Source: Lachnospiraceae bacterium (GTDB taxonomy: Bacteria; Bacillota; Clostridia; Lachnospirales; Lachnospiraceae). From it: DNA of 59,864 bases. The stretch is taken from contig JAILIO010000139.1 in assembly GCA_024695225.1 (NCBI GenBank), positions 1 to 59,864 on the forward strand, read 5' to 3'. The first letter of the stretch is position 1. The number at the start of each line of letters is the position of its first letter. The position numbers and the translations under genes were made by a program. This document shows positions 2,446 through 54,588 of the stretch, one piece after another. Below the pieces are notes generated by a model. It had not been told where the DNA came from, did not search any database, and worked only from the letters and a program-made list of their open reading frames with translations.

Positions 2446-3441
2446 ATGAAAAAGATACTGATCACGGGAGCTGCAGGGTTCATAGGGGCAGCTCTCGCCG
2501 CAAGGCTTTTGTCGGAGGATAAAGATACTTATGTGACAGGGATCGATTCCCTGACAGATTATTACGATCCTGCACTCAAGAGGGAGAGACTTGAAGAATT
2601 AAAAACCTTTGGAGAGAGATTCAGGTTCATCAAGGGAGATATTGCAGACCGGCTCTTTGTGGAGGATGTGATGAGAAGTGTCCGCCCTGACACAGTGGTG
2701 AACCTGGCAGCCCAAGCAGGGGTCAGGTATTCACTGATCCAGCCGGAGGCTTATATGCATTCCAATATAACGGGTTTTTACAATATTCTCGAGGCATGCC
2801 GCTCCTACTCCCCGGTGCATCTGGTCTATGCCAGTTCATCATCCGTATACGGAACCGATGCAAAGGCGCCCTTTCGCGAGGATGCGGCACTGCTGACTCC
2901 GGCTTCACTTTACGCTGCAACGAAGATCTCAAACGAAGCCATGGCTAAGGCCTATTCCCATCTGTTCGGATTCCCTTCAACAGGGCTCAGGTTTTTTACG
3001 GTGTACGGTCCCAAGGGGAGACCTGACATGGCTTACTACAAGTTCACCATCAGGATGATCGCCGGTGAAAGACTGCAGATATACAACAACGGAGATATGC
3101 TTAGGGATTTCACATACATAGATGACATCACCCGGGGCATAGCCCTTGTGATAAATGAGGGTCAGTCTGAGGGCAGTGAGATATATAATATCGGCGCAGG
3201 ACAGCCTGTGAAGCTTTTGGATTTCATTGATGTGCTGGAGGATGAACTTTTGGAGGCCGGCGTGATCCTGAAGAGGCCGGAGAGAGAGTTTCTGCCCATG
3301 CAGCCCGGGGATGTGCCGGAGACCTGGTGCGACACCGGAAAGCTTGAAAAGAGATTTGGCTACAAGCCGGAGACCGATCTGAGGACAGGGCTCAGGGCCT
3401 TTGCAATATGGTATAGGGAGAGATATGGTACTGACGGGTAA
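2446..3441 (+). CDS. NAD-dependent nucleotide-sugar 4-epimerase (SDR; UDP-glucuronate/UDP-hexose 4-epimerase-like)
   Basis: N-terminal Rossmann motif 'ILITGAAGFIGAALAARLL'. Catalytic YxxxK in 'SLYAATKISNE'. 'DYYDPALKRERL' resembles Cap1J/UDP-GlcA 4-epimerase-type proteins. Length 331 aa. Confidence 0.8.
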   Translation: MKKILITGAAGFIGAALAARLLSEDKDTYVTGIDSLTDYYDPALKRERLEELKTFGERFRFIKGDIADRLFVEDVMRSVRPDTVVNLAAQAGVRYSLIQPEAYMHSNITGFYNILEACRSYSPVHLVYASSSSVYGTDAKAPFREDAALLTPASLYAATKISNEAMAKAYSHLFGFPSTGLRFFTVYGPKGRPDMAYYKFTIRMIAGERLQIYNNGDMLRDFTYIDDITRGIALVINEGQSEGSEIYNIGAGQPVKLLDFIDVLEDELLEAGVILKRPEREFLPMQPGDVPETWCDTGKLEKRFGYKPETDLRTGLRAFAIWYRERYGTDG

Positions 3442-4777: not shown

Positions 4778-6200
4778 GAAAATAAGGCTCTGTGTCCTTG
4801 TGATAACTGCTGCGCTGACGGTGATGATGCTCCTTTCAGCCCCCTTTGATGTGCCCTCCATGGACGATTTTTCATTCTCCGTGGCAGCCAAAGAGGCTCT
4901 GGATTCAGGGGAGGGGATATGGGGCGTTATACAGGCGGCGGCTGCTACCTCCTACGACAAATACATGAACTGGCAGGGAACCTTTACATCCATATTTTTT
5001 ATGGCCATGATGCCCGGCATATTCGGCCTGAGAGCCTATGCCGTAACGCCCTGCATAATGCTGGCTGTTCTCTTCTTCGGGATCCTTTATTTCTTCAGGG
5101 CCCTGGGGGACAATGAAGAAGACAGGATCAGGCTGGACATAGTATCTATGCTTGTGTTCATCGCAGTCACGCAGTGTATGCCGGATCCCACGGAGGGCAT
5201 ATACTGGTATAACGGAGCGGTGCATTACACCATCCCCACCGCCGCTGCCATGTTCTTCTGCGGAGCTTTTGTGAGAAATGCCGAGGGGAACAAAAAATGG
5301 TATCACAATGTTCTCATGTATATTTCAGCGGTGCTGGCGGGAGGTGGAAATTATGTGACAGCCCTGGTGCTGGCGCTCATCATCCTCTCCTATCTGGTCT
5401 TTTCCCGGGTGCCTTTCTTCGGACAAAGGGCTTTTGGATTCTTTTCCATAATGTCCTATCTGATACTGTCGGCATCTTTTGCCCCGCTCTGGTACGGCTC
5501 CGGCAACATCGAGGCCGGAAGGGCCAGGGATGCCATATACATCTTTTATATGATTCTCCTGTTCCTGAACCTGATCATGCTGGTCCGGCGCAGGGAGTCC
5601 TCCTCACGGCTCGCCGCCATACTCACCCCGGACCCATATTCCGTCAGGTGGAACCTGGCAGGTGTCCTGTTGTTCTTTGCCTGCTTTATAGTGAATGTGC
5701 TGGCCCCTGGGAATACCGTCAGAGCTTCACAGACAGAATCCTACGGGATCATCCATTCCGTGGGGCTCAGCCTGTACTCCGGCTTTACCGTGCCCTTAAG
5801 GGAGTGGACGGACTGGCTTCCGGCGCTGATGCTGGTGGTTGCGGCCATTTTGTTCAGCAGTGTGGGGGTCAGGCGTGTCCTTCCGGCACTTCCCGTATTC
5901 ATGCTTTTTATGATAATGTCATTCAAGGCAGGGCCGGAACATTACACAGCCCTTTCCTCGGTAAAGTCCGTCGCCAACGGGGACGTGTTTCAGTACCGCG
6001 CCCAAGTGGTTGACCGCACAGCCTTTATTTCCACCTGTACGGGGGATGAGGTGGTGAAATTCTATTCCATAAAACCCGGACCCATTTTCAAGGGGGACAT
6101 CTCCTCCGATGAGACCCAGTGGGAAAACATTGCTTACGCCAGGTATTACGGTCTTGAGAGCATAAGGGGAGAGGGCGAGTACGGAGTGATGGAGAGATGA
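4761..6200 (+). CDS. Polytopic integral membrane protein, paralogue 1 (DDFSFS...YMNWQG family)
   Basis: Long ORF 4731..6200. The preferred start is TTG 4761 with GGGAAGGGA 7 nt upstream, giving 'MKDTLKKIRLCVLVITAAL'. Alternatives are GTG 4731 and ATG 4824. Shares N-terminal, internal ('APGN.VRAS') and C-terminal ('WENIAYARYYG') motifs with the next gene. Confidence 0.6.
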   Translation: MKDTLKKIRLCVLVITAALTVMMLLSAPFDVPSMDDFSFSVAAKEALDSGEGIWGVIQAAAATSYDKYMNWQGTFTSIFFMAMMPGIFGLRAYAVTPCIMLAVLFFGILYFFRALGDNEEDRIRLDIVSMLVFIAVTQCMPDPTEGIYWYNGAVHYTIPTAAAMFFCGAFVRNAEGNKKWYHNVLMYISAVLAGGGNYVTALVLALIILSYLVFSRVPFFGQRAFGFFSIMSYLILSASFAPLWYGSGNIEAGRARDAIYIFYMILLFLNLIMLVRRRESSSRLAAILTPDPYSVRWNLAGVLLFFACFIVNVLAPGNTVRASQTESYGIIHSVGLSLYSGFTVPLREWTDWLPALMLVVAAILFSSVGVRRVLPALPVFMLFMIMSFKAGPEHYTALSSVKSVANGDVFQYRAQVVDRTAFISTCTGDEVVKFYSIKPGPIFKGDISSDETQWENIAYARYYGLESIRGEGEYGVMER

Positions 6201-7540
6201 TGGAAAAGAAAAAAATACCCGTGACCTTTGTGGCAGCTGTGGCTGCAGCATATGTGGCGATCCTCGTTTTCATGCTTTTGACGCCCATGCTCACAGATGA
6301 CTTTTCATATTCCGTGATAGTGAGAAAAGCTTCTTCTCTCGGGGATCTCATCGCCCAGGAGAGGGATCAGTACATGAACTGGACCGGCAGGAGCATGGCC
6401 CACTTTCTTTTGAGACTGTTTTTGAAGGCCCCCCACCCGGTGTTCTGCATCCTTTCCGCCGGGGCTTTCACAGGGCTTTCGGTGTTTATTTACATGAACG
6501 CCTTCAGGAGAGAAAGCTACGATACGAGGGCGTTTTTGCTGATACAGCTTCTCATGTGGCTCACCGGGGTTTCCTTTCCTCAGACCGTGCTCTGGGAGAC
6601 CGGGGCGTGCACTTATCTCTGGGGCTCATTTGTGATAATGGCCTTCGTGACCGCCTACAGGGCAGGGCTAAACGCCCCCCACAGAAAATGGCTTTTCACC
6701 GTGCTGATCACTGTCCTGGGGTTTGTGGCCGGATGGTTCAATGAAAACACATCAGCCGGCGGGATATTTATCTGCGCAGCTTTTTTGATCCTGTATGTGA
6801 AGGATCAGGGACGGGGGACAAAGGCCCTTAGACCCTGGATGATCTCATCCCTCGTCTCTTCCTGCCTGTCCTTTCTCATAATGATTTCCGCCCCCGGAAA
6901 CAAGATCCGGGCTTCATTCTCCGAGGAGAATCACTCCGGGCTCTACGGCATGGCAGCCAGGGTACAGAAGCTGACCCTTAAGGTAAATGACAACTTCTTT
7001 GTGCTGCTTTCCCTGACAGTGCTTTTATTTGCGGTGCTGAAGGCCCAGGGAATCCTGATGAAGAGCCTGAGGGCGGAATTCGTGTTCCTGATAGCAGGTT
7101 TTCTCACGGTGTACTCCCTGTCCGCTGTGGCGTCCACTGAAGACAGGGCGCTGTTCGGGGCCGGCATGTTCCTGATAGTCGTGGTGGCATCGCTGTATTC
7201 CCGGATCGATGAGAAGGATGTGCTGATAAAAGCCCTGAAGAACGCGTCCGTCTGCATAGCGCTCATGTACTTTTTCTTCCTGTATCTGGATTCCGGGGCG
7301 GATCTGGCCAGGATATACAGGGAGAGCAGCGCCAGGCTTTCATCCATAGAGGAGCAGATGGCCGGAGGGGAAAGGGATGTGACTGCGGAATTCCTCCATA
7401 CGGAATTCGATAACCCCTACACTGCCGCATACGAGTCGGAGATCACAGATGACCCTGAGTACTGGGTAAATGTGGCCTATGCAGAGTACTTTGGGGCGGA
7501 CTCCGTGACGGGAGTCCCCAGGGCAGATTCGGAGGACTGA
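6197..7540 (+). CDS. Polytopic integral membrane protein, paralogue 2 (DDFSYS...YMNWTG family)
   Basis: ATGA start/stop overlap with the upstream paralogue. 'PMLTDDFSYS', 'YMNWTGRS', 'SAPGNKIRAS' and 'WVNVAYAEYFG' match the upstream gene position for position. Multiple TM segments. Confidence 0.65.
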   Translation: MMEKKKIPVTFVAAVAAAYVAILVFMLLTPMLTDDFSYSVIVRKASSLGDLIAQERDQYMNWTGRSMAHFLLRLFLKAPHPVFCILSAGAFTGLSVFIYMNAFRRESYDTRAFLLIQLLMWLTGVSFPQTVLWETGACTYLWGSFVIMAFVTAYRAGLNAPHRKWLFTVLITVLGFVAGWFNENTSAGGIFICAAFLILYVKDQGRGTKALRPWMISSLVSSCLSFLIMISAPGNKIRASFSEENHSGLYGMAARVQKLTLKVNDNFFVLLSLTVLLFAVLKAQGILMKSLRAEFVFLIAGFLTVYSLSAVASTEDRALFGAGMFLIVVVASLYSRIDEKDVLIKALKNASVCIALMYFFFLYLDSGADLARIYRESSARLSSIEEQMAGGERDVTAEFLHTEFDNPYTAAYESEITDDPEYWVNVAYAEYFGADSVTGVPRADSED

Positions 7541-7731: not shown

Positions 7732-8832
7732 ATGAAAAACAGGATCTATGTTTGTCATACATATTATCATGCGTTTATCACCTTTCTGAAGGAACTGTCC
7801 ATCAGAGAGAGGGAAAAGGACCCGGGGGAGGCTGTGCTTGTGCTCTCCTCCCTTTCCACGGATTTTACGGGTTTTATCGACAGGGCCGCAGCCTCAGGAC
7901 TTTTCAGGGAGGTGGTGGAATTTCCCGAGAAGCGTTTCACGGAGATCACGGAACTCAGGGTGCTCAGCAGAGACCGGGGCTCCATCTTTTCCAATATGAT
8001 CCAGAGGATACAGTTCACAAAAAGATACGCAGAGATAGAGGATCAGTATGTCCCTGATATCCTGAGGGAGCAGGGATATTCCATATATGTATACTGCGAC
8101 TCAGATCCTGTGGGTACCTGGCTGAACCAAAAGCACATAAGATATCATGCGGTGGAGGATGGCCTGAACTGCCTGGCCCATTTTGACACCGCCAGGTATG
8201 ACAACAGGAAAGCCTTTGCCCTGAAGGCTTTTATGTCCCGGAAACTGAACCTTATCTTCATACAGAACGGTTACGGTAAGTACTGCATGGACATGGAAGT
8301 AAACGACCTGTCCGCCATAGCGCTCCCTCCCATCTGGGGAGCCGTGTACAGGGAAGTGCCCAGGGCTCCTCTCTATGACAGACTGAAGCCCATTGACAAG
8401 GTGATCATAAGGGATGCATTCCTTCCCGAACTGGATAAAAAACTGCTCAGGGGGAAAGGTACTTCGGTGCTTCTTTTGACCGAGGCCCACAGACCATCCG
8501 AGATGCTGATCACCATGTATACGGACATCGTGAACGCCAGACCCGGGGCAAAGATATTCATAAAGCCCCATCCCATGGATGAGACCGACTACTCCTTTGC
8601 CTTCCCGGACGCAGTGATACTGCCGGGAAAGGTGCCAATGGAAGTGCTGAAACTGGTGCCGAGGGTGCATTTCAGCGAGGTCATAACCATTTATACGGAT
8701 CTGACCATGATAGACTTTGCCGACAAGAAGACAAGGCTCGGCAGCACATTTATGGACAGATATGAGGACCATTCCCTGCACGACCTGAACGACGGCATCG
8801 GGGTGAACACGGACAGGGACGATCCCCTGTGA
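7732..8832 (+). CDS. Sialyltransferase-like GT-B glycosyltransferase (GT52/GT38-polysialyltransferase-like, HP motif)
   Basis: The N-terminus 'MKNRIYVCHTYYHAFITFLKEL' and the motif 'AKIFIKPHPMDETDY' resemble my recollection of the start and the K-P-H-P 'HP motif' of bacterial sialyl/polysialyltransferases. No TM segments. The family call is from memory and needs an HMM check. Confidence 0.5.
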   Translation: MKNRIYVCHTYYHAFITFLKELSIREREKDPGEAVLVLSSLSTDFTGFIDRAAASGLFREVVEFPEKRFTEITELRVLSRDRGSIFSNMIQRIQFTKRYAEIEDQYVPDILREQGYSIYVYCDSDPVGTWLNQKHIRYHAVEDGLNCLAHFDTARYDNRKAFALKAFMSRKLNLIFIQNGYGKYCMDMEVNDLSAIALPPIWGAVYREVPRAPLYDRLKPIDKVIIRDAFLPELDKKLLRGKGTSVLLLTEAHRPSEMLITMYTDIVNARPGAKIFIKPHPMDETDYSFAFPDAVILPGKVPMEVLKLVPRVHFSEVITIYTDLTMIDFADKKTRLGSTFMDRYEDHSLHDLNDGIGVNTDRDDPL

Positions 8833-8842
8833 GGCGGGGGTC
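8821..8842 (+). terminator. Weak stem-loop overlapping the stop codon of the upstream gene
   Basis: GATCCCC (8821-8827) pairs with GGGGGTC (8836-8842) with one G-U pair and an 8-nt loop containing the TGA, followed by TTTGT. It is short, so it would be a weak terminator at best. Confidence 0.25.
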
Positions 8843-8871: not shown

Positions 8872-8899
8872 TTGATTTATCTACGGCGATATATATAAT
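8872..8899 (+). promoter_or_regulatory. Putative sigma-A promoter of the SGNH/ACP/MBOAT/rSAM operon
   Basis: TTGATT (8872-8877), 16-nt spacer, TATAAT (8894-8899). It lies 47 nt upstream of the ATG at 8946. Confidence 0.5.
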
Positions 8900-8945
8900 A
8901 GTTCGTAAACGAAGAGTGAACATACTTGATAAGAGGGAAAGATAT

Positions 8946-10079
8946 ATGGTTTTAAAGAGAAGGATGGCGGCGTGCCTCGTGGCAGTGTCCCTGATATTTA
9001 CGGGATGCAGCGCAGCGGGAACAGGCGCGGATATAAAGGACCCTGCCGGCACCGGGACAGAAACCGGGACAGTACAGGAGACGGAGGCTTCAGCGACTGC
9101 GGAGAGTTCAGATACAGCTGCAGGCACAGGTGAAACATCATCTGACAACTCCGGGGCAAATGAAAGCGCAGCCCTTCAGGGTACCTCCGCAGCGGAGACT
9201 CTCCCCTATGAGGAGAGTGATATGTACTCAGGGACGGGCAGTTCATTTACCCCTGACCCCAACTTTACAGAGCTTGAGCCGGACAGTCCGGAGCACCCCT
9301 GGAAGGAGAAATATAACCAAAAGAATCCCTGCAGGATAGTGTTTCTGGGGGACAGCCTTTACGAGGTTGGGAGGGAGAGCGATTCGGTCCCCCTGAGGGT
9401 TTGGAGCGACCTCATGAATGAGGAGTTCACCTGCACAGTATACAATCTGGCCATGGGAGGCACCTGCGCGGCTCTCCAGTCAAACGAGACCAATAAGCTC
9501 GAACTCTGGGACAGCAGATCCCTCACCGGGATGGTGCATATCCTGACCGGGGATATAGACGACAGCATACTGAAGGGGTACAAGACTCAGGAGATATACA
9601 GGTCCATAGGGGATCTGCAGACCGTGGATTATTTCATAATAGGCTACGGTACCAATGATTTCCTTTCAAAGATCCCTTTGGAGCGGGAGGGCATACCTTA
9701 CGCCCACGATCCCTACGGTTACCGGGGAGCCATGAATTATGCCGTGGAGACCATGATGAGTGAGTTTCCAAACGCCAGGATACTGGTGTGCACACCCCTT
9801 TACGCCCAGTTTTTCGGGGCTGACAGGTCCTATCTTGGGGACGCTTTTTCGTACAATAACGGATATGGCACCCTTCAGGACTACATAGGAGTCTGCCACA
9901 ATGTGGCATCCTCCGCCGGAGCCATGGTGTTCAACGGATATGACAATGCGAACATAAATGTTGGCAACGCATCGGAAACCCTGATGGACGACGGGATACA
10001 CCTGACTGCCGAGGGAAGACAGAGATATGCAGATGCCATAGCGAGACTGCTTCTGGAAAATAATGACGGCAAGGGATGA
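8946..10079 (+). CDS. SGNH/GDSL-family hydrolase/acyltransferase lipoprotein
   Basis: Start ATG 8946 with GAGGGAAAG upstream. The listed start at 8868 lies upstream of the predicted promoter. Signal peptide with lipobox 'SLIFTGC'. A Thr/Ser/Ala/Glu-rich linker follows, then SGNH blocks 'IVFLGDSLYE' (I), 'IGYGTNDF' (III) and 'DDGIHLTAEG' (V). Confidence 0.8.
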   Translation: MVLKRRMAACLVAVSLIFTGCSAAGTGADIKDPAGTGTETGTVQETEASATAESSDTAAGTGETSSDNSGANESAALQGTSAAETLPYEESDMYSGTGSSFTPDPNFTELEPDSPEHPWKEKYNQKNPCRIVFLGDSLYEVGRESDSVPLRVWSDLMNEEFTCTVYNLAMGGTCAALQSNETNKLELWDSRSLTGMVHILTGDIDDSILKGYKTQEIYRSIGDLQTVDYFIIGYGTNDFLSKIPLEREGIPYAHDPYGYRGAMNYAVETMMSEFPNARILVCTPLYAQFFGADRSYLGDAFSYNNGYGTLQDYIGVCHNVASSAGAMVFNGYDNANINVGNASETLMDDGIHLTAEGRQRYADAIARLLLENNDGKG

Positions 10080-10097
10080 CAAAAGGAGGTATGGACT

Positions 10098-10352
10098 ATG
10101 ACAAGGGAAGAGGTATATGAGACTTTGAATGAGGTCTTCAGGGACGTGTTTGACGATCCGACGCTGACTGTCTGTGATGAGACTACTGCCGAGGACGTGG
10201 AGGACTGGGACTCCCTGGAGCATATAAATCTTGTGGCAGCTGTGGAGCAGGAGTTTGGCGTGAGTTTTTCTCTTGGCCAGGTGCAGTCCATGAAAAATGT
10301 TGGAGAGATGGTGGATATAATACTCAGTCAGACAGAATCAGGCGAGTTCTGA
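10098..10352 (+). CDS. Acyl/aminoacyl carrier protein (phosphopantetheine-binding, DltC-like position)
   Basis: 84 aa and acidic. 'EDVEDWDSLEHINLVAAVEQEFG' carries the DSL serine at the expected start of helix 2. AAAGGAGG lies 9 nt upstream of the ATG. Confidence 0.8.
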   Translation: MTREEVYETLNEVFRDVFDDPTLTVCDETTAEDVEDWDSLEHINLVAAVEQEFGVSFSLGQVQSMKNVGEMVDIILSQTESGEF

Positions 10353-10359
10353 CAGCCTG

Positions 10360-11817
10360 ATGTCTGTCACGTCCTTTTATTTTTTGATATTTACTGCAGT
10401 CCTGCTTGCAGTTTACTATCTTGTGCCGGAGAGGCTCCGCGCAGCCGTGTTGCTGGCTGCGGGGGGCTTTTTTGTGTATTTTGGAGGAGGCTTTAAGGCC
10501 CTCATTCTCATGGCGCTCCAGTGCCTTATAGTGTGGTTCCTGACAGCAAGGCTTTCCGAAGCACAGGGGAAAATAAGGACGGTCCTTTTTGTGATCTCGA
10601 TCGCCCTTTGCCTCTGCCCTCTGATACTCCTTAAATATATAGGGATACAGGGCTTTATGGCGCCTGTTGGGATATCCTACTACTCCTTGAGCCTTGTCAG
10701 CATGACTGCGGATGTTTATCTGGGGATGGGAAAAGCACCCGGGGTTTCGGAGGCATTGCTCTTTGGCTCTTATTTCCCGGCTCTCACCTCCGGCCCCATC
10801 CTGTATTACCGGGAAGACTCCGGGGAACTGTTGGGGCTGTACGCTTATTCCCGGGAGAATGTGCTGAGGGGGCTCCAGCGCATGCTGTGGGGGCTTATGA
10901 AAAAGCTTGTGATATCGGAGAGACTTGCCGTGATCGCAGGGGCTGTTTTCGGTGAACCTGAGACCTACGGGGCGGTCTGGCTGATCATCGGCACTTTTTC
11001 TTTCTCCTTCCAGCTGTATACCGATTTCTCCGGCTGCATGGATATCATATTGGGGCTTTCAGAAGCTCTTGGCATTCATCTTCCCGAGAATTTTGACAGG
11101 CCTTTTCTCAGCCGGACCGTGGCTGAATACTGGCGCAGATGGCATATGACCCTGGGGGCTTTCATGAAGAATTATCTGTTTTACCCCCTTCTCCGGACCC
11201 GGCTCTTTACCGGCCTGAACAGGAAACTTAAAAAGAGCATGGGGAAAAAGGCCGGCAAGACCGCAGTCACAGCCCTTGCCATGCTGGTCCTTTGGACTGC
11301 CGTGGGATACTGGCATGGGGGTGATATCAAATATGTGATAGGCTCAGGCCTTCTGCACTGGTTTTATATAGTAACAGGCGAAATTATAAATCCTAAATTT
11401 AACAAATTCTGGAAAAGGTTCTCCTTCGGCCCGGATGCCCCCTGGCTGAATGCCCTTAGAGTGGTGCGGACCTTCTGCCTGGTGAGCATAGGATTCGTGT
11501 TTTTCAGGGCAGACACCGCAGCCTCTGCAGTGGTGATATTGAAGCGCATATTCACAGGAGCTTCGGGCACCGGATCCTGGAGTGATATTGGTATGGCCGC
11601 AAAAGATACAGCTGTTATGTTAATGTTTCTTTTAATAATGATCTGCATTGAATTTATGGCAGACAGGTGCCCGGGGAAGGATATAAGGCTTAAGATATCC
11701 GGATTCAGGCTGCCGCTGCGGTGGACCATCTGGTTTGCCCTTATCTTTTCTGTCATCATATTCGGCAAATATGGACCCGGCTACGATGCAGCTGCATTTA
11801 TATATCAGGAGTTCTGA
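10360..11817 (+). CDS. MBOAT-family membrane-bound O-acyltransferase (DltB/AlgI/PatA-like)
   Basis: 485 aa and polytopic. 'AEYWRRWHMTLGAFMKNYLFYPL' and 'VGYWHGGD' match the conserved MBOAT core, including the catalytic His region. It starts 7 nt after the carrier-protein gene. Confidence 0.85.
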   Translation: MSVTSFYFLIFTAVLLAVYYLVPERLRAAVLLAAGGFFVYFGGGFKALILMALQCLIVWFLTARLSEAQGKIRTVLFVISIALCLCPLILLKYIGIQGFMAPVGISYYSLSLVSMTADVYLGMGKAPGVSEALLFGSYFPALTSGPILYYREDSGELLGLYAYSRENVLRGLQRMLWGLMKKLVISERLAVIAGAVFGEPETYGAVWLIIGTFSFSFQLYTDFSGCMDIILGLSEALGIHLPENFDRPFLSRTVAEYWRRWHMTLGAFMKNYLFYPLLRTRLFTGLNRKLKKSMGKKAGKTAVTALAMLVLWTAVGYWHGGDIKYVIGSGLLHWFYIVTGEIINPKFNKFWKRFSFGPDAPWLNALRVVRTFCLVSIGFVFFRADTAASAVVILKRIFTGASGTGSWSDIGMAAKDTAVMLMFLLIMICIEFMADRCPGKDIRLKISGFRLPLRWTIWFALIFSVIIFGKYGPGYDAAAFIYQEF

Positions 11818-13634
11818 TGAAAGCTTTTGGAAGAGAGAAGATACATATAAGGCCACAGGTGCTGGCAGTGCTGATCTTTCTGGCGCTGGTGGCAGTTTCT
11901 GCTGTGATCCTCGGTGAAGACAAAATGGTGATCGCAGTCCAGGACGATCTGGATCTGTTTCAGGCAGAGTATGCGGACCTCAGAAACACGGGCACATTCT
12001 TTTCCCAGGGGGCAGTGAGCTCTGAACTGGGTGGTGTCACAAGAGACGCCATGCCGACGGAATTGAGCCTTACAGCCCTCATCTATATGATATTCCCGCC
12101 CTTCCCGGCGTATATCGCAGTTTACATACTGAAGGTACTGATATCCGTGTTTTCCTTTGGCCTTCTTTCCTGCGAGCTGTACGGATACGGAGATAAAACT
12201 GCAGGGGCAGGGCTTTCTGCAGGGTTCCTCTACGGGATATTGAACCTGTTCCCTGCCTATGGCATTGCTTTTGCATCCGTGCCCCTTGCGGTTTATTTTT
12301 TCATAAGGCTTGTAAATACGGGCAGGAAGCGGTATCTCCTCTGTCTCTTCCTGTATCCCTTTGTCTCCTATCTGTCATATCTGGGACTGTTCATCCTCAT
12401 GTGGGCCTTTGTATTCTGGGTGATCCTGTCTGTCAGGAGAAGGAAACCGGAGCTCAAAATGCTTGCAGGTGTGATATGCCTGGGGGCAGGCTATGTCTGT
12501 TTTGAATACAGACTGGTGAGGCTGACTGTAACCGGCCCGGAATCCATAAGGTCTTTATTTACATGGCCTGATATGAGCCTTGTTGAGGCACTCGGGGAAT
12601 CCCTGGATGTGTTTCTGAAAGGGCAGATGCATTCCGATGCCGCGGTCACCTTCTTCGTGCTGCCGCTCTGCGCGATCTACCTGATATACATCATCTTCCG
12701 GAAGATGCGGCCCTCCGGCGGGGGACCTGAAGAGGGGATTTCAGGCAGGAACTTCCCGGGCGGGTCCGGAGAGGATCATACAGATGAAAAGGCCTCAGGC
12801 AAATATCTTACAGCAGAAAGTGTATTCCTGGTTTCTGCCGCAATGATCGCAGTAAACTCCGTTATATACGGGATGCAGGATATAAAGGCGGTCCGGGATC
12901 TGGTGTGGGGTATCTTCCCCTTTATGTCATCCCTTCAGTTTGACAGGGCCGTTTTCCTGAACCCATTCCTCTGGTACCTGGCATTCCTGTCTGTAATGTT
13001 GTCTGTCAGGAGAGAGGCTGTCCGCAATCTCATGGCGGCTCTGGCAGCTCTTATGATCCTCCTGCATCCCGGCACCTACAACGACATCCTGAACACCGCA
13101 AAACAGCAGGCCCTTGAAGTCCTCACAGAAAAGGAGGGGGGATCCCTGACCTACGGTGAATTCTATGACACCGAAATGTTTTGCGCCATAAGGGAGGATC
13201 TGGGCTATAATGGAGAGTGGTGCGTATGTTACGGGCTTTATCCCGCAGAACTAAACTATAACGGCTTCAGGACCCTGGACGGGTATCTGGGTTTTTATCC
13301 CCTGGAGTACAAGGAGCGTTTCAGAGAGGTCATAAAGCCTGCCCTCGACATGAACCCCTGGGCCCGGGAATATTATGACGGCTGGGGCGCCAGATGCGTT
13401 CTGTTTTCCGGGACCGGACAGAATATATGGTCCGGGGAAAGACGGTTTGACATAGAGGATTCAAATATTTATATTGATACAGAGGCTTTGAAAGCCATGG
13501 ACTGCAGGTGGCTGTTTTCCCGATACCGCCTGGAAAACGCTGAAGAAACAGGACTTTACGGCGAGCGGGTGTACAGCGGAAAAGCCCCCTACAGCGTGTA
13601 TGTGTACGGTCTGGACCCCGGGGATGAAGATTAG
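11817..13634 (+). CDS. Large polytopic membrane protein with C-terminal extracytoplasmic domain, unknown function
   Basis: ATG 11817 overlaps the MBOAT stop codon (TGATG). The listed start at 11721 lies inside the MBOAT gene. About 10 TM helices, a Gly/Glu-rich loop ('SGGGPEEGISGRNFPGGSGEDH'), and a roughly 170-aa soluble C-terminal domain ending in 'APYSVYVYGL'. Confidence 0.6.
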   Translation: MKAFGREKIHIRPQVLAVLIFLALVAVSAVILGEDKMVIAVQDDLDLFQAEYADLRNTGTFFSQGAVSSELGGVTRDAMPTELSLTALIYMIFPPFPAYIAVYILKVLISVFSFGLLSCELYGYGDKTAGAGLSAGFLYGILNLFPAYGIAFASVPLAVYFFIRLVNTGRKRYLLCLFLYPFVSYLSYLGLFILMWAFVFWVILSVRRRKPELKMLAGVICLGAGYVCFEYRLVRLTVTGPESIRSLFTWPDMSLVEALGESLDVFLKGQMHSDAAVTFFVLPLCAIYLIYIIFRKMRPSGGGPEEGISGRNFPGGSGEDHTDEKASGKYLTAESVFLVSAAMIAVNSVIYGMQDIKAVRDLVWGIFPFMSSLQFDRAVFLNPFLWYLAFLSVMLSVRREAVRNLMAALAALMILLHPGTYNDILNTAKQQALEVLTEKEGGSLTYGEFYDTEMFCAIREDLGYNGEWCVCYGLYPAELNYNGFRTLDGYLGFYPLEYKERFREVIKPALDMNPWAREYYDGWGARCVLFSGTGQNIWSGERRFDIEDSNIYIDTEALKAMDCRWLFSRYRLENAEETGLYGERVYSGKAPYSVYVYGLDPGDED

Positions 13635-13693
13635 GCGCCGGGGCCTTTATCAATAAACCCGGGTCCTGATACCCGGATATACGGAGGTGTGAA

Positions 13694-14677
13694 ATGCCTG
13701 TAAAAATCCATTGTTTCATGGGAAAGATCGGATGGGAACTGAGGAAGCGCGTGCCTTCCCTCTCCAGCGACAGCTATCTGAAGCTGCAGTTTGTGACCAG
13801 GAGAAAACTCCAGCAGCGCTACATCGAATACTTCAACAACAGCCCTGAGACCCCCAAACCCCTTGTGGTGAACATCGAGACCATAAACCGCTGCAACTCC
13901 ACCTGCGAGTTCTGCACCGCAAATAAAAACGCTGAAAAGAGACCTTTCAAGCGCATAGAGGAAGACCTTTATTATTCCATAATCGACCAGCTTGCGGACT
14001 GGGGCTACAGAGGACATCTGACGCTGTACGGCAACAATGAACCCTGGCTGGACAACAGGATAGTGGAGTTCCACAAGTACGCCAGGGAGAAGCTTCCGGA
14101 TTCATTTATATTCATGTCCACCAACGGCCTTATCCTGGATGTGGACAAGGTGAAACAGATAAAGCCCTACGTGAACCAGCTGATCATAAATAATTACAGC
14201 TACGAGATGAAGCTTCACGAGAATCTGCAGATCGTCTACAGGTATATCGAGAAGCATCCTGAGGAGTTCGAGGATGTGGATGTGCTCTTCCAGATCAGGT
14301 ATCTGGGGGAAGTCCTGACAAACAGGGCCGGCAGCGCACCCAACAAGCAGTCCACCGGGAAGATCATAACAGAGACCTGTCTCATGCCCTTTACTGACAT
14401 GTGGATCGAGCCCGACGGGAGAATGGGCATCTGCTGCTGCGACAACTTTGAGACCACATGCCTTGCGGACCTTACAAAGACTCCCTTAAAGGAAGCCTGG
14501 GAGGGAAAGCCTTACAAAGCTTTGAGGGAAGCGGTGGCCCAGGGCCGTGACAAATATCCCTTCTGCAAATACTGTGATTTCATAGATGCAGGACTCAGGA
14601 TGGACGCAGTGAAGGATGAGCTGAACCATTCGGAGGTGCTCCACGGCGCAAGACAGTCCCTGAAGAGACTTAAGTGA
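13694..14677 (+). CDS. Radical SAM enzyme with C-terminal SPASM/twitch-like Cys-rich domain
   Basis: CX3CX2C motif in 'NRCNSTCEFCTA'. 'GNNEPW' is a GGEP-like motif. C-terminal cysteines occur in 'CLMPF...GICCCDNFETTCLADL...YPFCKYCDF'. GGAGGTG lies upstream of the ATG. Confidence 0.8.
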   Translation: MPVKIHCFMGKIGWELRKRVPSLSSDSYLKLQFVTRRKLQQRYIEYFNNSPETPKPLVVNIETINRCNSTCEFCTANKNAEKRPFKRIEEDLYYSIIDQLADWGYRGHLTLYGNNEPWLDNRIVEFHKYAREKLPDSFIFMSTNGLILDVDKVKQIKPYVNQLIINNYSYEMKLHENLQIVYRYIEKHPEEFEDVDVLFQIRYLGEVLTNRAGSAPNKQSTGKIITETCLMPFTDMWIEPDGRMGICCCDNFETTCLADLTKTPLKEAWEGKPYKALREAVAQGRDKYPFCKYCDFIDAGLRMDAVKDELNHSEVLHGARQSLKRLK

Positions 14678-14710
14678 TCTTCGTAACAGCGTAAGATAAA
14701 GGCATTAGAT

Positions 14711-14742
14711 AACCCCCTTGAGAAGATATCCTCAAGGGGGTT
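14711..14742. terminator. Bidirectional intrinsic terminator between convergent genes
   Basis: Perfect 10-bp stem CCCCCTTGAG (14713-14722) / CTCAAGGGGG (14731-14740) with an 8-nt loop. It is flanked by AA and TTTGTT and sits between the stop codons at 14677 (+) and 14790 (-). Confidence 0.7.
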
Positions 14743-14789: not shown

Positions 14790-16373
14790 TCAGTCCATTT
14801 CGTTGTCTTCAGGTTTTTCCTGGGCTTCGTGGTAGTCCTTCTCCGTGTTCACGCTCCAGACATTGTCCTTATTTTTCCTGCCGCTCATTATGTTGTTCAC
14901 GGCTTCGAAAGACGTGCACATGCTGTGATCTATGTTGTTGTAGCGGTGCTGACCGTTTCGCCCCACGCAGTACAGGTTTTCAATGCCTTTCAGCCAGTCC
15001 ACCAGAGTGTCTATCTCGTCATAGGTGTCAAAGTATGCGGGGTAGGCCTTCTTGACCCTCTCCACATGGGTGTCCAGCACGCAGGCGGGATCGTCTATGA
15101 TCCCCAGCTTCACCATCTCTTTTACTGCGCCTCTGGCAAACTTGGAGTCCTCCAGATTCCAGTACCTGTCCCCCTCATTTACAAAGTATTCGAGACCCAT
15201 CCACACAGTGTTCTCCAGGTCCTTTATCATGTAAGGGGACCAGTTGTTGTAGATCTGGAAACGTCCCATCTTCACGCTCCTGTCCTGCACGTAGATCCAG
15301 CAGTCAGGGATTATGTTTGAGACTGTCTTCATCTGGGTTTCATTCTTCAAAAGCAGGTTCTTCCTGGGGATCAGCACTCCCAGTGTCATGTAGTCCCTGT
15401 AGGGAAGCCCTGCGGCGATCCTGGCAGGGTCTGAGGGCACGTCGTTCATGCCTGCCACCAGGTCCTTTATGGGCATGGAGGAAATGATCACATCTCCGGA
15501 AAGCTCGTGTTCTTTCCCCTCCGGATCCGTATAGACGACTCCGGTGAGCCTGTCCCCGTCCTTTATGATCTTTACCACCTTGCTGTTTTTGAGGATATTA
15601 CCTCCCAGCTCGGACACCTTTTTCGCTGTCACATCCCAAAGCTGGCCGGGGCCTAACTTGGGATAGCTGAATTCCTCTATGAGGGATGTCTCAACCTTCC
15701 TGTTCTTCTTTCCGAAGGCCTTCCCCAGCACATCCTTGATGACCGCCACTATGGAAAGTCCCTTGACCCTCTGGGCTCCCCAGGAGGCATCGATCTCGCT
15801 GGGGTGTCTCCCCCAGAGATTCTCGGTATAGTTCTCAAAGAACATGGAATAGAGTTTCTTTCCGAAACGGTTTATGTAAAAGTTCTCAAGGTTTGTCTCC
15901 TCTTTCTTGAAGAGTACAGCCTTTATGTATGAGAATCCCACTTTTATGGTGGTGGCAAGCCCCAGAGTCTGAAGGGTCTTAAGCTTCAGGGAGATGGGAT
16001 AATCAAAGAACTTTTTGTCAAAGAATATCCTGGATACCCTGTGGCGGCGGAGCATGACCACATCTGTCTTCTCAGGGTCCGGACCGCCTTTTTTGAGCGG
16101 CATCTGCCTGCCCAGCATGATGTCGTCCTTCGTGGGACTGCCCTGGAGAGGAAGCATCTTCTCCCACCACTCATTTACCTCCGGCACTTTGGAGAAAAAT
16201 CTGTGGCCGCCCATATCCATCCTGTTGCCATGCCAGGATACGGTCTTTGAGATGCCGCCGAAGTCATTGCTCTCTTCGAGAACCGTGACTTCATAGCCGC
16301 TGTTTCTGTTCAGGAGTTCGTATGCGGCAGTGAGTCCCGCAGGACCCGCGCCTATGACTATTGCTTTTTTCAT
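14790..16373 (-). CDS. FAD/NAD(P)-dependent oxidoreductase (protoporphyrinogen-oxidase / UDP-galactopyranose-mutase superfamily)
   Basis: N-terminal dinucleotide fold '[19 protein letters not shown]...[10 protein letters not shown]' and 'GGHRFFSK'. 527 aa. It is the only minus-strand gene in this part of the locus. The specific substrate cannot be called. Confidence 0.65.
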
Positions 16374-16470: not shown

Positions 16471-17502
16471 ATGATAATATTCAAGCTCATATCCCTCATA
16501 TTCTGGCTGGGGCTTATCCCTTTTGGGATAGGTCTTCTCGTGTCCCTGTTTTTGCCGGAAAAGGAGATATCCATACTTTCTGTTACGGTTTCCGGTTATA
16601 TGGCCTATTGGTCTCTCTTTGAGATAACTGCTCTTCCCTTTTTGCTCCTGGGGAAGGGGGTCCCTGTGTTTGACTCTCTTTCTGCAGTGTTTGCAGTCCT
16701 GTCCGCCATGGTATCCCTTTCCGGTTACATCCTGAGAAGAGGGAAGTTAAGGGGGCTTATCCCGGATATCAGACCGGTATTCCCGGCGATCCTTTCATTT
16801 GCGGTGATCGCATTCATCCTTGTGATGAACACCCGCACTGCCTTCTTTGACGGCGATGAAGCCTACTACACCGGACAGGCTCTGGCAGCGCAGCAGACGG
16901 GATATCTGTATTACAGATCCCCCTACACCGGAACCTGGGCCTATTTTGACAGCAGGCACGCCCTGGCAATGCTCCCGGTATGGGAAGCTTTCATAGGAAA
17001 GATGAGCGGACTCCACGCAGCTGTGATAAACCACACGGTCATGAGCTTTGTGATGATCCCGCTGTCCATGGGAGCTGCGGCCCTCGCTGCAGGAACAGTC
17101 CTTAAAAAAAGAAGTTCTCTCTGTATTTTCACAGCCCTGTACGGAGCAGCCCTGGTGTTCTCCAGGATGTCCATCTACAACCGGGGGACTTTTCTCATCA
17201 CCAGGACCTCCCAGGGAAAGGCTGCCGCTGCGGGCTTCTTCATGACACTTCTACTGTGGCTTATATTTATATCCATGGAGCAGTATCGGGAAAACAGGAC
17301 ATTCCCCCTGCTTCTCATGCTGTCAGGGCCTGCGGTGGGGCTGTTCTCTTCCCTTGCGCTTCTCCTCTGCATGATGTTTTTATTTACGGCTTTTGCCCTT
17401 TACGCTATCCTTAAGAAGAGCCTGAGACCGTTGATATATGCGGGTCTCTCCTGTGTCCCGCAGTTCCTGTATCTGCTGCTCTACATGGGGGCCGGCTCAT
17501 GA
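16471..17502 (+). CDS. Polytopic integral membrane protein (N-terminal 'half' of a GT-C-like architecture)
   Basis: 343 aa and almost entirely TM helices. No Shine-Dalgarno sequence is visible upstream of the ATG. The stop overlaps the next start (ATGA). Confidence 0.5.
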   Translation: MIIFKLISLIFWLGLIPFGIGLLVSLFLPEKEISILSVTVSGYMAYWSLFEITALPFLLLGKGVPVFDSLSAVFAVLSAMVSLSGYILRRGKLRGLIPDIRPVFPAILSFAVIAFILVMNTRTAFFDGDEAYYTGQALAAQQTGYLYYRSPYTGTWAYFDSRHALAMLPVWEAFIGKMSGLHAAVINHTVMSFVMIPLSMGAAALAAGTVLKKRSSLCIFTALYGAALVFSRMSIYNRGTFLITRTSQGKAAAAGFFMTLLLWLIFISMEQYRENRTFPLLLMLSGPAVGLFSSLALLLCMMFLFTAFALYAILKKSLRPLIYAGLSCVPQFLYLLLYMGAGS

Positions 17503-18548: not shown

Positions 18549-20054
18549 TCACTCCGCTGCGTCGTAGTAGGTCAGGGCGTACACAAATCTGCTGGCCAGC
18601 TTTTCCACACCTTTATCCGTGAGATGGAACTCCTTATCCAGGTAATCCGGATAATTGCTTCCGTTTATGGAACCGTAATAATTGTCCACCACGGTTATGG
18701 ACAGGTCTGCGGCCGTCTGTATCTCCTTCATGATGTAGAGCGGCATCTTCTCGATATTGTTGCTGGTGGTGTCCGGGTCGTACACATTTCCCTCCACATC
18801 CACTCCGGGTGAATAGTAGGGAGTCATGAGGATGATCCTGATCCAGGGATAGTTCTGCTGGATCTTCTTCACGCTGTAAATAAGGGCGGAGTTCACGGAG
18901 TCCTTGTCCCCGTTTGATATGAGCTGTCTGCCGTAGAAGTAATCATTTGCATCGTAGAATATGCAGAGCACATCCACGCTGTTCATGTCGGTGGCTTCAA
19001 GAGCATTCAGGTTTTCCAGGGAGGTGGTGGAATCGCCGTGGTTTTCCGTGAGATCTGCCTCCTGTATGGCGAAATCGCCGCTCACAAGGGAGTCTGCAAG
19101 ATTTGGCAGGGCGGCGGCATCATCTGCGTAGGACGAAGCGTCATAGCTGTCATTTATGCAGGCAAGGGTTGAGAAACTGATGGGGGCGTTCACGGCCTCC
19201 GCTTCCTTCCCTTTGGACTTGAGTGTGGAGACTGTAATGTCGGCTATGCGGTTTCCCTCTCCCCCTGCCATAAGGGGGGTATTTCCCAGAAACATTATGG
19301 TGGTCTTTCCGTCATCCTCATGCCCTGCCAGGAGTTTTTCGTCCAGGGGCAGGATGGAATCCAAAGCTTCATAATCGTACTGGGATGTATCCTCGTTTGG
19401 ATCGAAGATGATCTTCACGCCGCGGTTCCAGGACCATAAACGGATAACGCAGAACAGCGCCACCGCAAGTATGGCGATCAAAAGTATGAGATTCAGGTTT
19501 AAACGATAGCGTTTTTTCTTGGGCTTTACATCGTCCTCATCGTCGAAGGTCTGTCCTTCGTCCAGATCCAGGACTTCGTCGTCTATATCAGACGGAGAGG
19601 TGTCCCGGTCATCCCCTGAGAGATCTGAGCCTGCACCTGCAGTGTCATCCTCATCCGAAAAAATGTCATCGTCATCCATATCCTCGAGATCGGAGTCGAT
19701 GTCATTCACGTCTTCAATATCGGAGTTCGCTTCATCCGTATTTTTAAGATCGGGATCGGAGATATCAATGTCTTTGTGATCGGGATCCGTGTCCGCAGCA
19801 TCCGTGTCTTTGACGCCGGGATCCGTGTCCGTATCTTTATCCGGAAGGTCTTTGGCGGCTTCAGAGTTATCTTTCCCTGCGTCTGGCATACCTGATACGT
19901 CTGCAGCATCCTCCGCTTCCGGAGAAACAGCCTCTTCAGGAGATGCGGCTGTTTCTTCAGCGGTGAGCTTCTTGTTTTCAGGTTTATTGTTCACAGGTTT
20001 CCCGGAATTTGACTGGTTTTTCCTGTTGTTTCTGTTTTTCTTTTTGCGTGTCAT
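18549..20054 (-). CDS. Single-pass (type II) membrane protein: about 185-aa basic-then-acidic N-terminal tail, TM helix, C-terminal SGNH-like domain with variant catalytic block
   Basis: Starts 'MTRKKKNRNNRKNQ', then a D/E/T-rich tail ('DTDTDPGVKDTDAADTDPDHKDIDISDPD...DMDDDDIFSDEDD'). TM helix 'LILLIAILAVALFCVIRLW'. SGNH-like blocks 'IMFLGNTPL' (I, Asp to Asn and Ser to Thr), 'FYDANDYF' (III) and 'DKEFHLTDKG' (V-like). Confidence 0.65.
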   Translation of the reverse strand: MTRKKKNRNNRKNQSNSGKPVNNKPENKKLTAEETAASPEEAVSPEAEDAADVSGMPDAGKDNSEAAKDLPDKDTDTDPGVKDTDAADTDPDHKDIDISDPDLKNTDEANSDIEDVNDIDSDLEDMDDDDIFSDEDDTAGAGSDLSGDDRDTSPSDIDDEVLDLDEGQTFDDEDDVKPKKKRYRLNLNLILLIAILAVALFCVIRLWSWNRGVKIIFDPNEDTSQYDYEALDSILPLDEKLLAGHEDDGKTTIMFLGNTPLMAGGEGNRIADITVSTLKSKGKEAEAVNAPISFSTLACINDSYDASSYADDAAALPNLADSLVSGDFAIQEADLTENHGDSTTSLENLNALEATDMNSVDVLCIFYDANDYFYGRQLISNGDKDSVNSALIYSVKKIQQNYPWIRIILMTPYYSPGVDVEGNVYDPDTTSNNIEKMPLYIMKEIQTAADLSITVVDNYYGSINGSNYPDYLDKEFHLTDKGVEKLASRFVYALTYYDAAE

Positions 20055-54561: not shown

Positions 54562-54588
54562 CATTATGAAAAATACAGAGGCTGTCCT

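Follow-up and report, generated by a model that had tools for sequence, protein, structure and literature searches.

A five-gene unit in a Lachnospiraceae wall polysaccharide locus with predicted modules for carrier-protein-fed O-acylation and side-chain glycosylation

Relays that couple an MBOAT membrane protein to an SGNH partner are a general bacterial route to the acylation of envelope polymers. Two described types come closest to the locus treated here, namely the Dlt system of teichoic acid D-alanylation (DltA-DltC-DltB-DltX-DltD) and the PatA/PatB-type pairs (PatAB, AlgI/AlgJ/AlgX, WssH/WssI and Bacillus PatA1/PatB1). The acyl shuttle is the motif FxYxxF, the invariant tyrosine of which is acylated by the MBOAT and then passes the group to the SGNH partner, as described for DltX and PatA; the motif resides on the microprotein DltX in the Dlt system and is fused to the C-terminus in PatA-type MBOATs (PMC12148441). 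MBOAT/SGNH pathways other than Dlt have no carrier protein (PMC12148441). Here, we describe a unit of five genes in a contig of a gut or rumen Lachnospiraceae bacterium (JAILIO010000139.1), the entire 59,864-nt stretch of which is called the window. We consider it reasonably probable that the unit is a composite extracytoplasmic decoration cassette for the rhamnose-containing wall polysaccharide encoded by the rest of the window, made up of an acylation module and a glycosylation module. An earlier reading of the DNA (the original prediction) had regarded the five genes as a self-contained Dlt-like operon without an adenylating ligase.

The five open reading frames (ORFs) span 8946-14677 on the + strand and are tightly packed. 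The gaps recovered from the ORFs (18 nt, 7 nt, a 1-nt overlap of the MBOAT and DUF6044 genes, and 59 nt) are exactly those given in the original prediction. The features are the following:

8946-10079 (+): SGNH/GDSL lipoprotein, 377 aa; ORF with Pfam match and motifs
10098-10352 (+): acyl carrier protein (ACP), 84 aa; ORF with PP-binding match
10360-11817 (+): MBOAT, 485 aa; ORF with Pfam MBOAT match and RRWH/WHG motifs
11797-11814 (+): C-terminal acyl-shuttle hexapeptide FIYQEF of the MBOAT; FxYxxF match, Tyr482
11817-13634 (+): DUF6044 membrane protein, 605 aa; ORF with PF19510 match
13694-14677 (+): BtrN-like "twitch" radical SAM (rSAM) enzyme, 327 aa; ORF with Pfam and PDB matches

The identical gene order was found on at least four other contigs (L081, L087, L088 and L091, where L001-L157 denote the related loci compared with the window), and the five L081 proteins are 68-87% identical to their window counterparts.

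For the first module (8946-11817), we infer a carrier-protein-fed MBOAT-SGNH O-acylation relay. A small acyl group would be held as thioester on the phosphopantetheine of Ser39 of the ACP and offered at the cytoplasmic face of the MBOAT, which would use His262 and His319 to transfer it to Tyr482 of its own FIYQEF shuttle at the outer face. Ser137 of the SGNH lipoprotein would then take the acyl group from Tyr482 and esterify a sugar hydroxyl of the polymer. The second module (11817-14677) would perform a GtrC-like side-chain glycosylation step, in which DUF6044 would take a sugar from a polyprenyl-phosphate donor and attach it to the polymer on the outer side of the membrane. In the cytoplasm, the BtrN-like rSAM enzyme would most likely oxidise a sugar or cyclitol hydroxyl of this donor or its precursor to a keto intermediate, possibly yielding an epimer.

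Pfam and NCBIfam analysis of the window revealed RmlA, RmlC, a Wzm/Wzt ABC exporter, a priming phosphoglycosyltransferase, many GT2 glycosyltransferases and several GT-C-like membrane proteins, namely two DUF6056 proteins (GT_STM0557_N in newer Pfam), DUF6020, DUF6077 and GtrII. The window as a whole is an extensive wall polysaccharide locus of Lachnospiraceae type.

The MBOAT (PF03062, 50.3 bits) contains RRWH at residues 259-262 (His262) and WHG at 318-320 (His319). Its nearest solved relative is DltB (PDB 6BUG, E 4e-24), with both His motifs aligned, and the WHG/RRWH core that had been read from the DNA is present. The score against the DltB equivalog TIGR04091 was 154.4 bits, below the curated cutoff of 375, and the protein is about 60-90 aa longer than DltB, with a fused shuttle motif. 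Its C-terminus reads AAAFIYQEF, and all complete MBOATs of the related loci likewise end in FxYxxF. Since the shuttle is fused to the MBOAT, no DltX is needed; when all six frames of the window were searched for ORFs with a terminal FxYxxF, only a 27-codon chance segment at 5830-5910 inside another gene turned up besides the MBOAT. A hidden gene for DltX or a phosphopantetheinyl transferase (PPTase) between ACP and MBOAT was considered and rejected, as the gap is 7 nt in the window and the corresponding 450-600 nt of relatives are occupied by an antisense VOC/Glyoxalase_4 gene.

The SGNH protein begins with a signal peptide and lipobox (MVLKRRMAACLVAVSLIFTG followed by C, lipobox Cys21) and a low-complexity linker up to about residue 125. 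GDS at residues 135-137 (Ser137), GTND at 235-238 and DGIH at 349-352 account for the SGNH blocks I, III and V that had been reported as intact, and block II was found as MGG at 170-172. Pfam matches were Lipase_GDSL_2 (41.9 bits) and also Lipase_GDSL, with no DltD (PF04914) match at E ≤ 0.01. The unit thus has, as PatA/PatB-type pairs do, a separate extracytoplasmic SGNH partner with a Ser/Asp/His triad (Cys21; blocks I, II, III and V), and orthologues of this protein adjoin the ACP in relatives. From these motifs, the lipoprotein is predicted to be the extracytoplasmic acyltransferase from the C-terminal Tyr of the MBOAT to the polymer.

The phosphopantetheine site of the ACP is Ser39 in WDSLEH (codon 10212-10214), and the PP-binding match scored 24 bits, in agreement with the carrier protein with a DSL serine that had been proposed. 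Whether the carrier is closer to DltC or to AcpP could be answered in favour of AcpP: among NCBIfam models only AcpP-type ones matched (best 36.7 bits), none of them DltC, and the PDB matches at E ≤ 1 comprised 54 ACPs, best 2LML (E 3e-18), with no DltC chain among them. The ACP family is large, with at least 8000 clusters at 90% identity, the top 120 of which are 75-84% identical to the window ACP. Gut metagenomes are rich in it, single sequences being found on hundreds of contigs.

With Dlt, the unit shares a small carrier gene beside an MBOAT and an extracytoplasmic SGNH-fold transferase, and presumably the flow from carrier thioester via MBOAT, Tyr shuttle and SGNH Ser to the polymer. It differs from Dlt in having no ANL ligase (the loader of relatives is FkbH-type), an AcpP/2LML-like rather than DltC-like carrier, no DltX (the shuttle being fused to the MBOAT), an SGNH protein outside the DltD family and an MBOAT below the DltB cutoff; the likely acceptor is a rhamnose-type wall polysaccharide and not lipoteichoic acid. 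With the PatA/PatB-type pairs, it shares an MBOAT of about 480-520 aa with C-terminal FxYxxF, a separate SGNH protein and the decoration of a cell-envelope glycan, whereas those pairs use an acyl-CoA donor and no carrier (PMC12148441), and here a dedicated, extremely conserved ACP is present, usually with FkbH. The "DltD/DltC/DltB logic" of the original prediction therefore holds inasmuch as DltB is the nearest solved MBOAT (E 4e-24), but fails in the lack of a DltD match, the AcpP-type ACP and the PatA-type fused shuttle. Module 1 is a hybrid of a PatA-type MBOAT-SGNH pair and a Dlt-like carrier donor, the latter deduced from conserved adjacency. Since non-Dlt pathways are described as having no carrier protein (PMC12148441), the combination of an ACP with a PatA-type MBOAT-SGNH pair lies outside the current picture. 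The core of the original prediction, in which an MBOAT esterifies a wall glycopolymer with a carrier-bound group and no adenylating enzyme is encoded, stands as the presumed function, with ACP, MBOAT and SGNH protein all holding their catalytic motifs.

Gene neighbourhoods were compared in two samples. The DUF6044-centred sample was obtained by a profile search that found relatives in 404 species genomes, and 80 loci with 10-kb flanks were analysed; the titles of most of these 80 retained records name Lachnospiraceae, Butyrivibrio or related Clostridia. The ACP-centred sample resulted from an unbiased metagenome scan with an ACP profile and comprised 33 loci flanked by 4 kb or more in both directions. 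The following layouts were observed:

Layout A: SGNH, FkbH-like, ACP, (antisense VOC), MBOAT, GT2, a 472-aa protein of unassigned family, DUF6044, DUF2142, rSAM, SGNH2
Layout B: MBOAT, GT2, SGNH, (FkbH-like), ACP, (VOC), GtrA, DUF6044, rSAM, SGNH2
Layout C (Butyrivibrio): rSAM, DUF6044, GT2, SGNH, MBOAT; without ACP
Layout D: GT2 and a DUF6044 of about 1150 aa; without rSAM

In the DUF6044-centred sample, an ACP was present in 27 of 80 loci. Among these 27, FkbH was found in 18 and an MBOAT of one high-scoring clade in 25; FkbH never occurred without ACP, and only one MBOAT of this clade did. The rSAM gene was present in 51 loci of the same sample, 25 of them without ACP. The ACP-centred sample (n = 33) contained FkbH in 26 loci, MBOAT in 29, DUF6044 in 10 and rSAM in 8, with neither DUF6044 nor rSAM in 23. 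Two very abundant ACP members, from gut lineages, follow the order FkbH, ACP, MBOAT, GT2, GT-C (PMT_2 or GT87), SGNH, without DUF6044 and rSAM. These counts imply that the carrier protein belongs with FkbH and MBOAT and not with DUF6044 and rSAM. The ACP gene lies 7 nt upstream of the MBOAT gene in the window, and it tracks the MBOAT clade (25 of 27 loci), which speaks for the ACP as acyl donor; the sister clade of Butyrivibrio has no ACP. The proposed co-occurrence of ACP, MBOAT, rSAM and SGNH was hence borne out for ACP with MBOAT (25/27 and 29/33), while rSAM proved separable from ACP.

Three records of the DUF6044 set, L052, L067 and L077, are titled Muribaculaceae, Bacteroides sp. or Bacteroidaceae, yet contain typical Lachnospiraceae-type DUF6044/rSAM loci; these titles are probably an error of metagenome-assembled genome binning or of labelling.

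The FkbH-like protein of relatives, of about 610 aa and encoded between SGNH and ACP, consists of FkbH_N and a HAD domain. Three representatives scored 283, 270 and 280 bits against NCBIfam TIGR01686 (cutoff 146.65). The protein also matches PDB 3SLR and keeps the DLDNT HAD motif and an SCRV cysteine. One of the loci with FkbH (L028) belongs to the cultivable Lachnospiraceae bacterium 28-4. To our knowledge, all characterised FkbH enzymes (FkbH, OzmB, ZmaN and the tetronate enzymes) make glyceryl-S-ACP from 1,3-bisphosphoglycerate. Because the ACP of relatives adjoins FkbH and every characterised FkbH makes glyceryl-S-ACP, the acyl group would most likely be glyceryl (D-glycerate) or a closely related small hydroxyacyl unit. 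The arrangement in relatives resembles the glyceryl-ACP systems of polyketide synthesis (FkbH/FkbJ, OzmB/OzmE, ZmaN/ZmaD) in that a full-length FkbH, with FkbH_N, HAD-IIIC and a C-terminal Cys domain, is encoded directly upstream of a stand-alone ACP. It differs in that there are no polyketide synthase and no FkbK/FkbI/FkbG oxidation/methylation genes, the ACP is followed by an MBOAT and the setting is a wall locus; FkbH itself is absent from the window.

A 131-aa VOC/Glyoxalase_4 protein, of the methylmalonyl-CoA-epimerase-like fold family, is encoded antisense and immediately 3' of the ACP gene in relatives. It accompanies the ACP in 26 of the 27 genome-sample loci that have one and in 19 of the 33 metagenome loci, whether FkbH is present or not (among L002-L080 and L089-L140; examples are L049:8948-9343 (-) and L089:9308-9703 (-)). 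It was not found in the window by tblastn. The VOC protein might epimerise C2 of an ACP-bound hydroxyacyl group.

For the second module, DUF6044 (PF19510, 443.5 bits) was modelled with AlphaFold2 (pLDDT 81.6, pTM 0.85). A Foldseek search of the PDB with this model returned GT-C enzymes for all of the top 21 matches (probability 0.98-1.00, TM-score up to 0.47), among them PglB, STT3 and AftA (TM-score 0.46-0.47), DPY19, ArnT, AftD and Emb. Asp43 and Asp46 (QDDLDLF; nt 11943-11954), in the first external loop after transmembrane helix 1 (residues 13-36), are invariant across 20 homologues at about 40% identity, which fits a GT-C catalytic loop. In relatives, GtrA (PF04138, 70 bits) is encoded directly upstream of DUF6044 in 16 loci, and 68 of the 80 fetched loci include a polyprenyl-phosphate-hexose-type GT2, with matches to AglJ, dolichyl-phosphate-hexose, PpgS and PgfS models. 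Judged by the model, DUF6044 is predicted to be a GT-C fold glycosyltransferase using a polyprenyl-phosphate sugar. The GT-C fold, the invariant Asp loop and the GtrA/GT2 neighbours identify it as a candidate GtrC/GacL-like side-chain glycosyltransferase and not as a Dlt component. In the original prediction, this protein, counted there as 606 aa, had been an uncharacterised part of a Dlt-like pathway; the question of a known fold was thereby answered with GT-C, and the Dlt-like role was abandoned, given this fold and the GtrA-like and polyprenyl-phosphate-hexose GT2 partners of relatives.

DUF6044 thus resembles the GtrA/GtrB/GtrC systems (e.g., streptococcal GacI/GacL, and ArnC/ArnT) in its GT-C fold, its invariant loop Asp and, in relatives, its GtrA and polyprenyl-phosphate hexose GT2 partners. 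It differs in being uncharacterised, in being found here only in Lachnospiraceae-type genomes and usually with rSAM, and in that these partners are not in the window. Longer DUF6044 proteins of about 1150 aa are encoded in 14 loci (L011, L012, L015, L017, L020, L021, L025, L030, L033, L038, L055, L059, L070 and L076) together with a GT2 but never with rSAM, ACP or MBOAT; no Pfam match was obtained for their C-terminal half of about 550 aa.

The GT-C assignment raises the question of whether the ACP could assist the GT-C protein in a structural or regulatory role, like AcpM with EmbA/B/C and AftD, instead of being the MBOAT donor. The Foldseek matches of DUF6044 include AftD and Emb-AcpM complexes, AftD is reportedly found with a bound ACP, and hardly any ACP locus is without a GT-C gene of some kind (DUF6044, PMT_2, GT87 or DUF6056). 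We nevertheless regard this as highly improbable: the FkbH loader adjoining the ACP in most loci implies a cargo, the ACP occurs about 1:1 with one MBOAT clade (25/27, with one such MBOAT lacking an ACP) while the family of the GT-C partner varies, and DltC-DltB is a direct precedent for a carrier serving an MBOAT.

The rSAM enzyme matched Radical_SAM (37.5 bits) and SPASM (42.1 bits). Its CX3CX2C motif at Cys67/71/74 is invariant, and further cysteines are found at Cys229, Cys247-249 (a CCC triplet), Cys291 and Cys294, besides a conserved 55-aa N-terminal extension. The best PDB sequence match is BtrN (E 4.5e-10 with the single sequence, 1.4e-15 with a profile), and in the profile alignment Cys229, Cys247, Cys291 and Cys294, all invariant, align with the four auxiliary-cluster cysteines of BtrN. 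Foldseek likewise returned BtrN (4M7T, E 4.8e-13, TM-score (target) 0.77, root mean square deviation 3.9 Å), followed by the anSME family at 2.8e-6; further structural neighbours include SpeY and DesII, which are carbohydrate enzymes. The homologues show 68-87% identity, and the few with a named source are labelled Lachnospiraceae; rSAM lies at most 3 kb from DUF6044 in 45 of 65 loci. By analogy to BtrN, we infer that the enzyme abstracts hydrogen from a C-H bond of a carbohydrate or cyclitol, most likely to dehydrogenate it, and serves the glycosylation module. The lipid-linked or nucleotide sugar on which DUF6044 draws is one candidate substrate.

Compared with BtrN (2-deoxy-scyllo-inosamine dehydrogenase) and also SpeY and DesII, the similarity extends over the full length in sequence and structure and includes CX3CX2C and four auxiliary cysteines. 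The differences are the 55-aa N-terminal extension, the CCC triplet, an identity of only about 17-19%, and the location in a wall-glycan locus beside a GT-C gene instead of an aminoglycoside cluster. An assignment as peptide maturase was considered and rejected. The SPASM Cys pattern is incomplete, comprising the CX12GX4C start and the terminal CX2C without the CX2CX5CX3C block of the full seven-Cys motif (CX9-15GX4C ... CX2CX5CX3C ... C; two auxiliary clusters), and BtrN matched far better than anSME, CteB, SuiB and the sactisynthases.

According to the original prediction, all five proteins would form one integrated Dlt-like pathway, with rSAM making or modifying the ACP-bound group and the membrane protein taking part in the relay. 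The tight packing including the 1-nt MBOAT/DUF6044 overlap, the order kept on at least four other contigs, and the occurrence of MBOAT/SGNH near DUF6044 and rSAM in many loci, even in ACP-less Butyrivibrio, speak for such a pathway. In contrast, rSAM and DUF6044 occur in 25 loci without ACP, and 23 of 33 loci have ACP, FkbH and MBOAT but neither DUF6044 nor rSAM; the fold of DUF6044 is GT-C, with GtrA/GtrB partners, and rSAM resembles the carbohydrate dehydrogenase BtrN and not acyl-ACP-modifying enzymes. We conclude that one integrated pathway is improbable, and the tie between rSAM and carrier protein was given up. As MBOAT/SGNH are found near DUF6044/rSAM in many loci, some functional coupling of the two proposed modules is likely, e.g., acylation of the sugar added by DUF6044. 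MBOAT/SGNH pairs recur beside GT2/GT-C genes in all layouts, and the acyl group may accordingly end up on the side-chain sugar added by the GT-C protein or close to it.

Several findings weigh against the two-module reading. No AMP-binding ligase and no PPTase were found in Pfam/NCBIfam scans of the main window ORFs of at least 180 aa, so that the ligase is missing just as originally stated; the five proteins themselves and the scanned ORFs of related loci gave no AMP-binding match either. FkbH is also absent, as tblastn of the window with two FkbH-like queries gave a best E of 2.4, and ACP loci without FkbH recur (9/27 and 7/33). Some of these FkbH-less loci have other neighbours, such as paired AsnB-like genes, and the acyl group may thus differ between lineages. 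The GtrA/GtrB-type partners usual for DUF6044 in relatives are lacking as well: tblastn of the 59.9-kb window with the GtrA and the polyprenyl-phosphate-hexose GT2 of relatives found no homologue of either, and the lipid-linked sugar donors must therefore be made elsewhere. Finally, the rSAM substrate is a guess from the nearest characterised relative at 17-19% identity. The unit can accordingly not be called self-contained, considering that in relatives the ACP adjoins an FkbH-family enzyme in 18/27 and 26/33 loci and the window has none.

Analysis of dN/dS within the FkbH-less lineage gave values of 0.055 for SGNH, 0.037 for ACP, 0.14-0.16 for MBOAT, 0.12 for DUF6044 and about 0 for rSAM, and all five genes are under purifying selection. 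That the acylation module is decaying after FkbH loss, with ACP, MBOAT and SGNH protein non-functional, would fit the absence from the window of the FkbH, VOC, GtrA and GtrB-like genes of most relatives. It is barely credible, however, in view of the low dN/dS of SGNH, ACP and MBOAT, the intact ORFs with all catalytic motifs, and a gene order that has been kept at only 68-87% identity of the five proteins between lineages; a pseudogenised relic was ruled out by dN/dS. As judged from gene content, the FkbH gene appears to be lost or relocated from the window locus. Since FkbH, ANL ligase and PPTase are missing from the window and purifying selection nevertheless acts on all five genes, the ACP is probably charged by a putative loader in trans, most simply an FkbH from another part of the genome, e.g., that of a second polysaccharide locus.

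Alternatively, the ACP of the FkbH-less lineage could carry another acyl group, loaded by housekeeping or unlinked enzymes (FabD/FabH-type enzymes for malonyl or acetyl, a PPTase transferring acyl-phosphopantetheine directly from acyl-CoA, or an ANL ligase encoded at another site), resulting in an acetyl, malonyl or aminoacyl ester and not in glycerate. This would agree with the lack of FkbH within 59.9 kb, with an FkbH-less arrangement that is stable and under selection, with the different neighbours of other FkbH-less ACP-MBOAT loci (AsnB-like pairs in L147, L153, L154 and L157), and with a MaoC dehydratase and a short-chain dehydrogenase/reductase (SDR) beside the ACP in L128, which points to a diversified ACP-bound group in this family. 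On the other hand, the window ACP shares 68-84% identity with ACPs that adjoin FkbH in related loci, and no residues separate the ACPs of loci with and without FkbH, which argues for the same loader surface; furthermore, the genome sample has nine loci without FkbH, and none of them showed an alternative loader near the ACP. We rate such a different cargo as unlikely, though worth keeping in mind, and prefer a glycerate-type group loaded in trans.

Loader candidates among the unassigned ORFs of these nine loci were checked and rejected, as they turned out to be DUF6056-like GT-C, GtrA, GT2, Glf, CotH, DltD-like and carboxyltransferase proteins, with no ligase. The FkbH-less ACP-MBOAT clade of L147, L153, L154, L157 (about 3710-5605 and 10919-12802) and L111 is flanked by two asparagine-synthetase-like proteins (GATase and Asn_synthase) and GT4 glycosyltransferases. 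In L128, the genes encode ACP, MaoC dehydratase, SDR, a glycosyltransferase, FkbH, an AsnB-like protein and MBOAT. Because of the AsnB-like pairs in FkbH-less loci and the MaoC and SDR genes beside ACP/FkbH in L128, the ACP-bound group is probably tailored differently among lineages; these loci suggest tailoring, e.g., towards a lactyl-type group, with possible amidation chemistry.

A wider proposal, which we advance tentatively and with more doubt than assent, is that gut and rumen Lachnospiraceae possess a second carrier-dependent MBOAT pathway. FkbH would load a glyceryl group derived from 1,3-bisphosphoglycerate (in some loci a lactyl-type or tailored hydroxyacyl group), which would pass via MBOAT and SGNH protein to a rhamnose-rich polymer; rSAM would feed an oxidised or epimerised lipid-linked sugar to DUF6044, and the window would be a stripped-down version with its ACP charged in trans. 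If true, this would be the first link of FkbH chemistry to the cell envelope and a counter-example to the notion that only Dlt uses a carrier protein, and rSAM/DUF6044 would represent an anaerobic equivalent of the DprE1/DprE2-Aft/Emb logic. Reviews and mechanistic papers place a carrier protein in Dlt only, and this ACP family is consistently found with a PatA-type MBOAT and FkbH. Provided that the relay works as proposed, common gut commensals would bear glycerate-type esters on their wall polysaccharides, and such esters could affect phage adsorption, immune recognition and susceptibility to lysozyme and autolysins. Two orphan families would receive their first functional assignments, DUF6044 as predicted GT-C glycosyltransferase and its rSAM partner as BtrN-like. 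Within the searchable literature, we found no description of an FkbH/ACP/MBOAT/SGNH system in envelope modification or of DUF6044, in line with the earlier remark that no system of this composition was known.

The boundaries of the unit were examined for regulatory signals:

8821-8842 (+): terminator-like hairpin with T-run, 3' of the upstream GT52-like gene; 7-bp stem with 5 G-C pairs, tail TTTGTCTG
8872-8899 (+): sigma-70-like promoter motif TTGATT-16-TATAAT; 10/12 consensus positions, inside the 113-nt intergenic gap
14711-14742 (strand not applicable): strong hairpin with 12-bp stem and 8-nt loop; -23 kcal/mol, z = -3.7

The hairpin at 8821-8842 marks the 5' boundary. The promoter motif at 8872 that had been noted before is indeed present and is a plausible promoter of the unit as a sequence match; promoter-like sites were not enriched in the region, with 8 observed against 7.1 ± 2.8 in shuffles, and since such sites occur at chance frequency, the motif alone carries little weight. 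Its use as proof of the operon start was rejected, as it is not statistically separable from chance. The best sigma-70-like match of the region (TTGACA-17-TATATT, 11/12) was found at 13447-13475 (+) inside the 3' end of the DUF6044 gene, about 220 nt upstream of the rSAM start, and could be an internal rSAM promoter or a chance match.

The proposed bidirectional 3' terminator turned out to be real, with 0 of 200 shuffles folding as well as the hairpin at 14711-14742. It lies between the rSAM gene and the convergent gene at 14790-16373 (-), with U-rich flanks on both strands, and is likely to terminate transcription in both directions and to close the unit on its 3' side.

Outside the unit, a tandem DUF6056/GT_STM0557_N pair, one DUF6020 and one GtrII are encoded at 4731-7540, 3401-4777 and 22859-24586. 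Five sizeable ORFs (629, 568, 744, 501 and 329 aa), located at 50969-56823 (+), 18549-20054 (-) and 45255-46244 (-), had no Pfam match at E ≤ 1e-4. The convergent gene at 14790-16373 (-) encodes an NAD(P)/FAD oxidoreductase of the NCBIfam PRK07208 type (772 bits) with distant similarity to UDP-galactopyranose mutase, and a DUF6077 membrane protein is encoded divergently from it at 16471-17502 (+). This pair is conserved just downstream of rSAM in the window, L001, L081, L087/L088 and many loci of types A and B, and may be a further module of sugar modification and membrane transfer. An 880-aa GH25 lysozyme with choline-binding repeat is encoded at 20215-22857 (+), a position kept in L081, and may be an autolysin whose binding could depend on polymer decorations.

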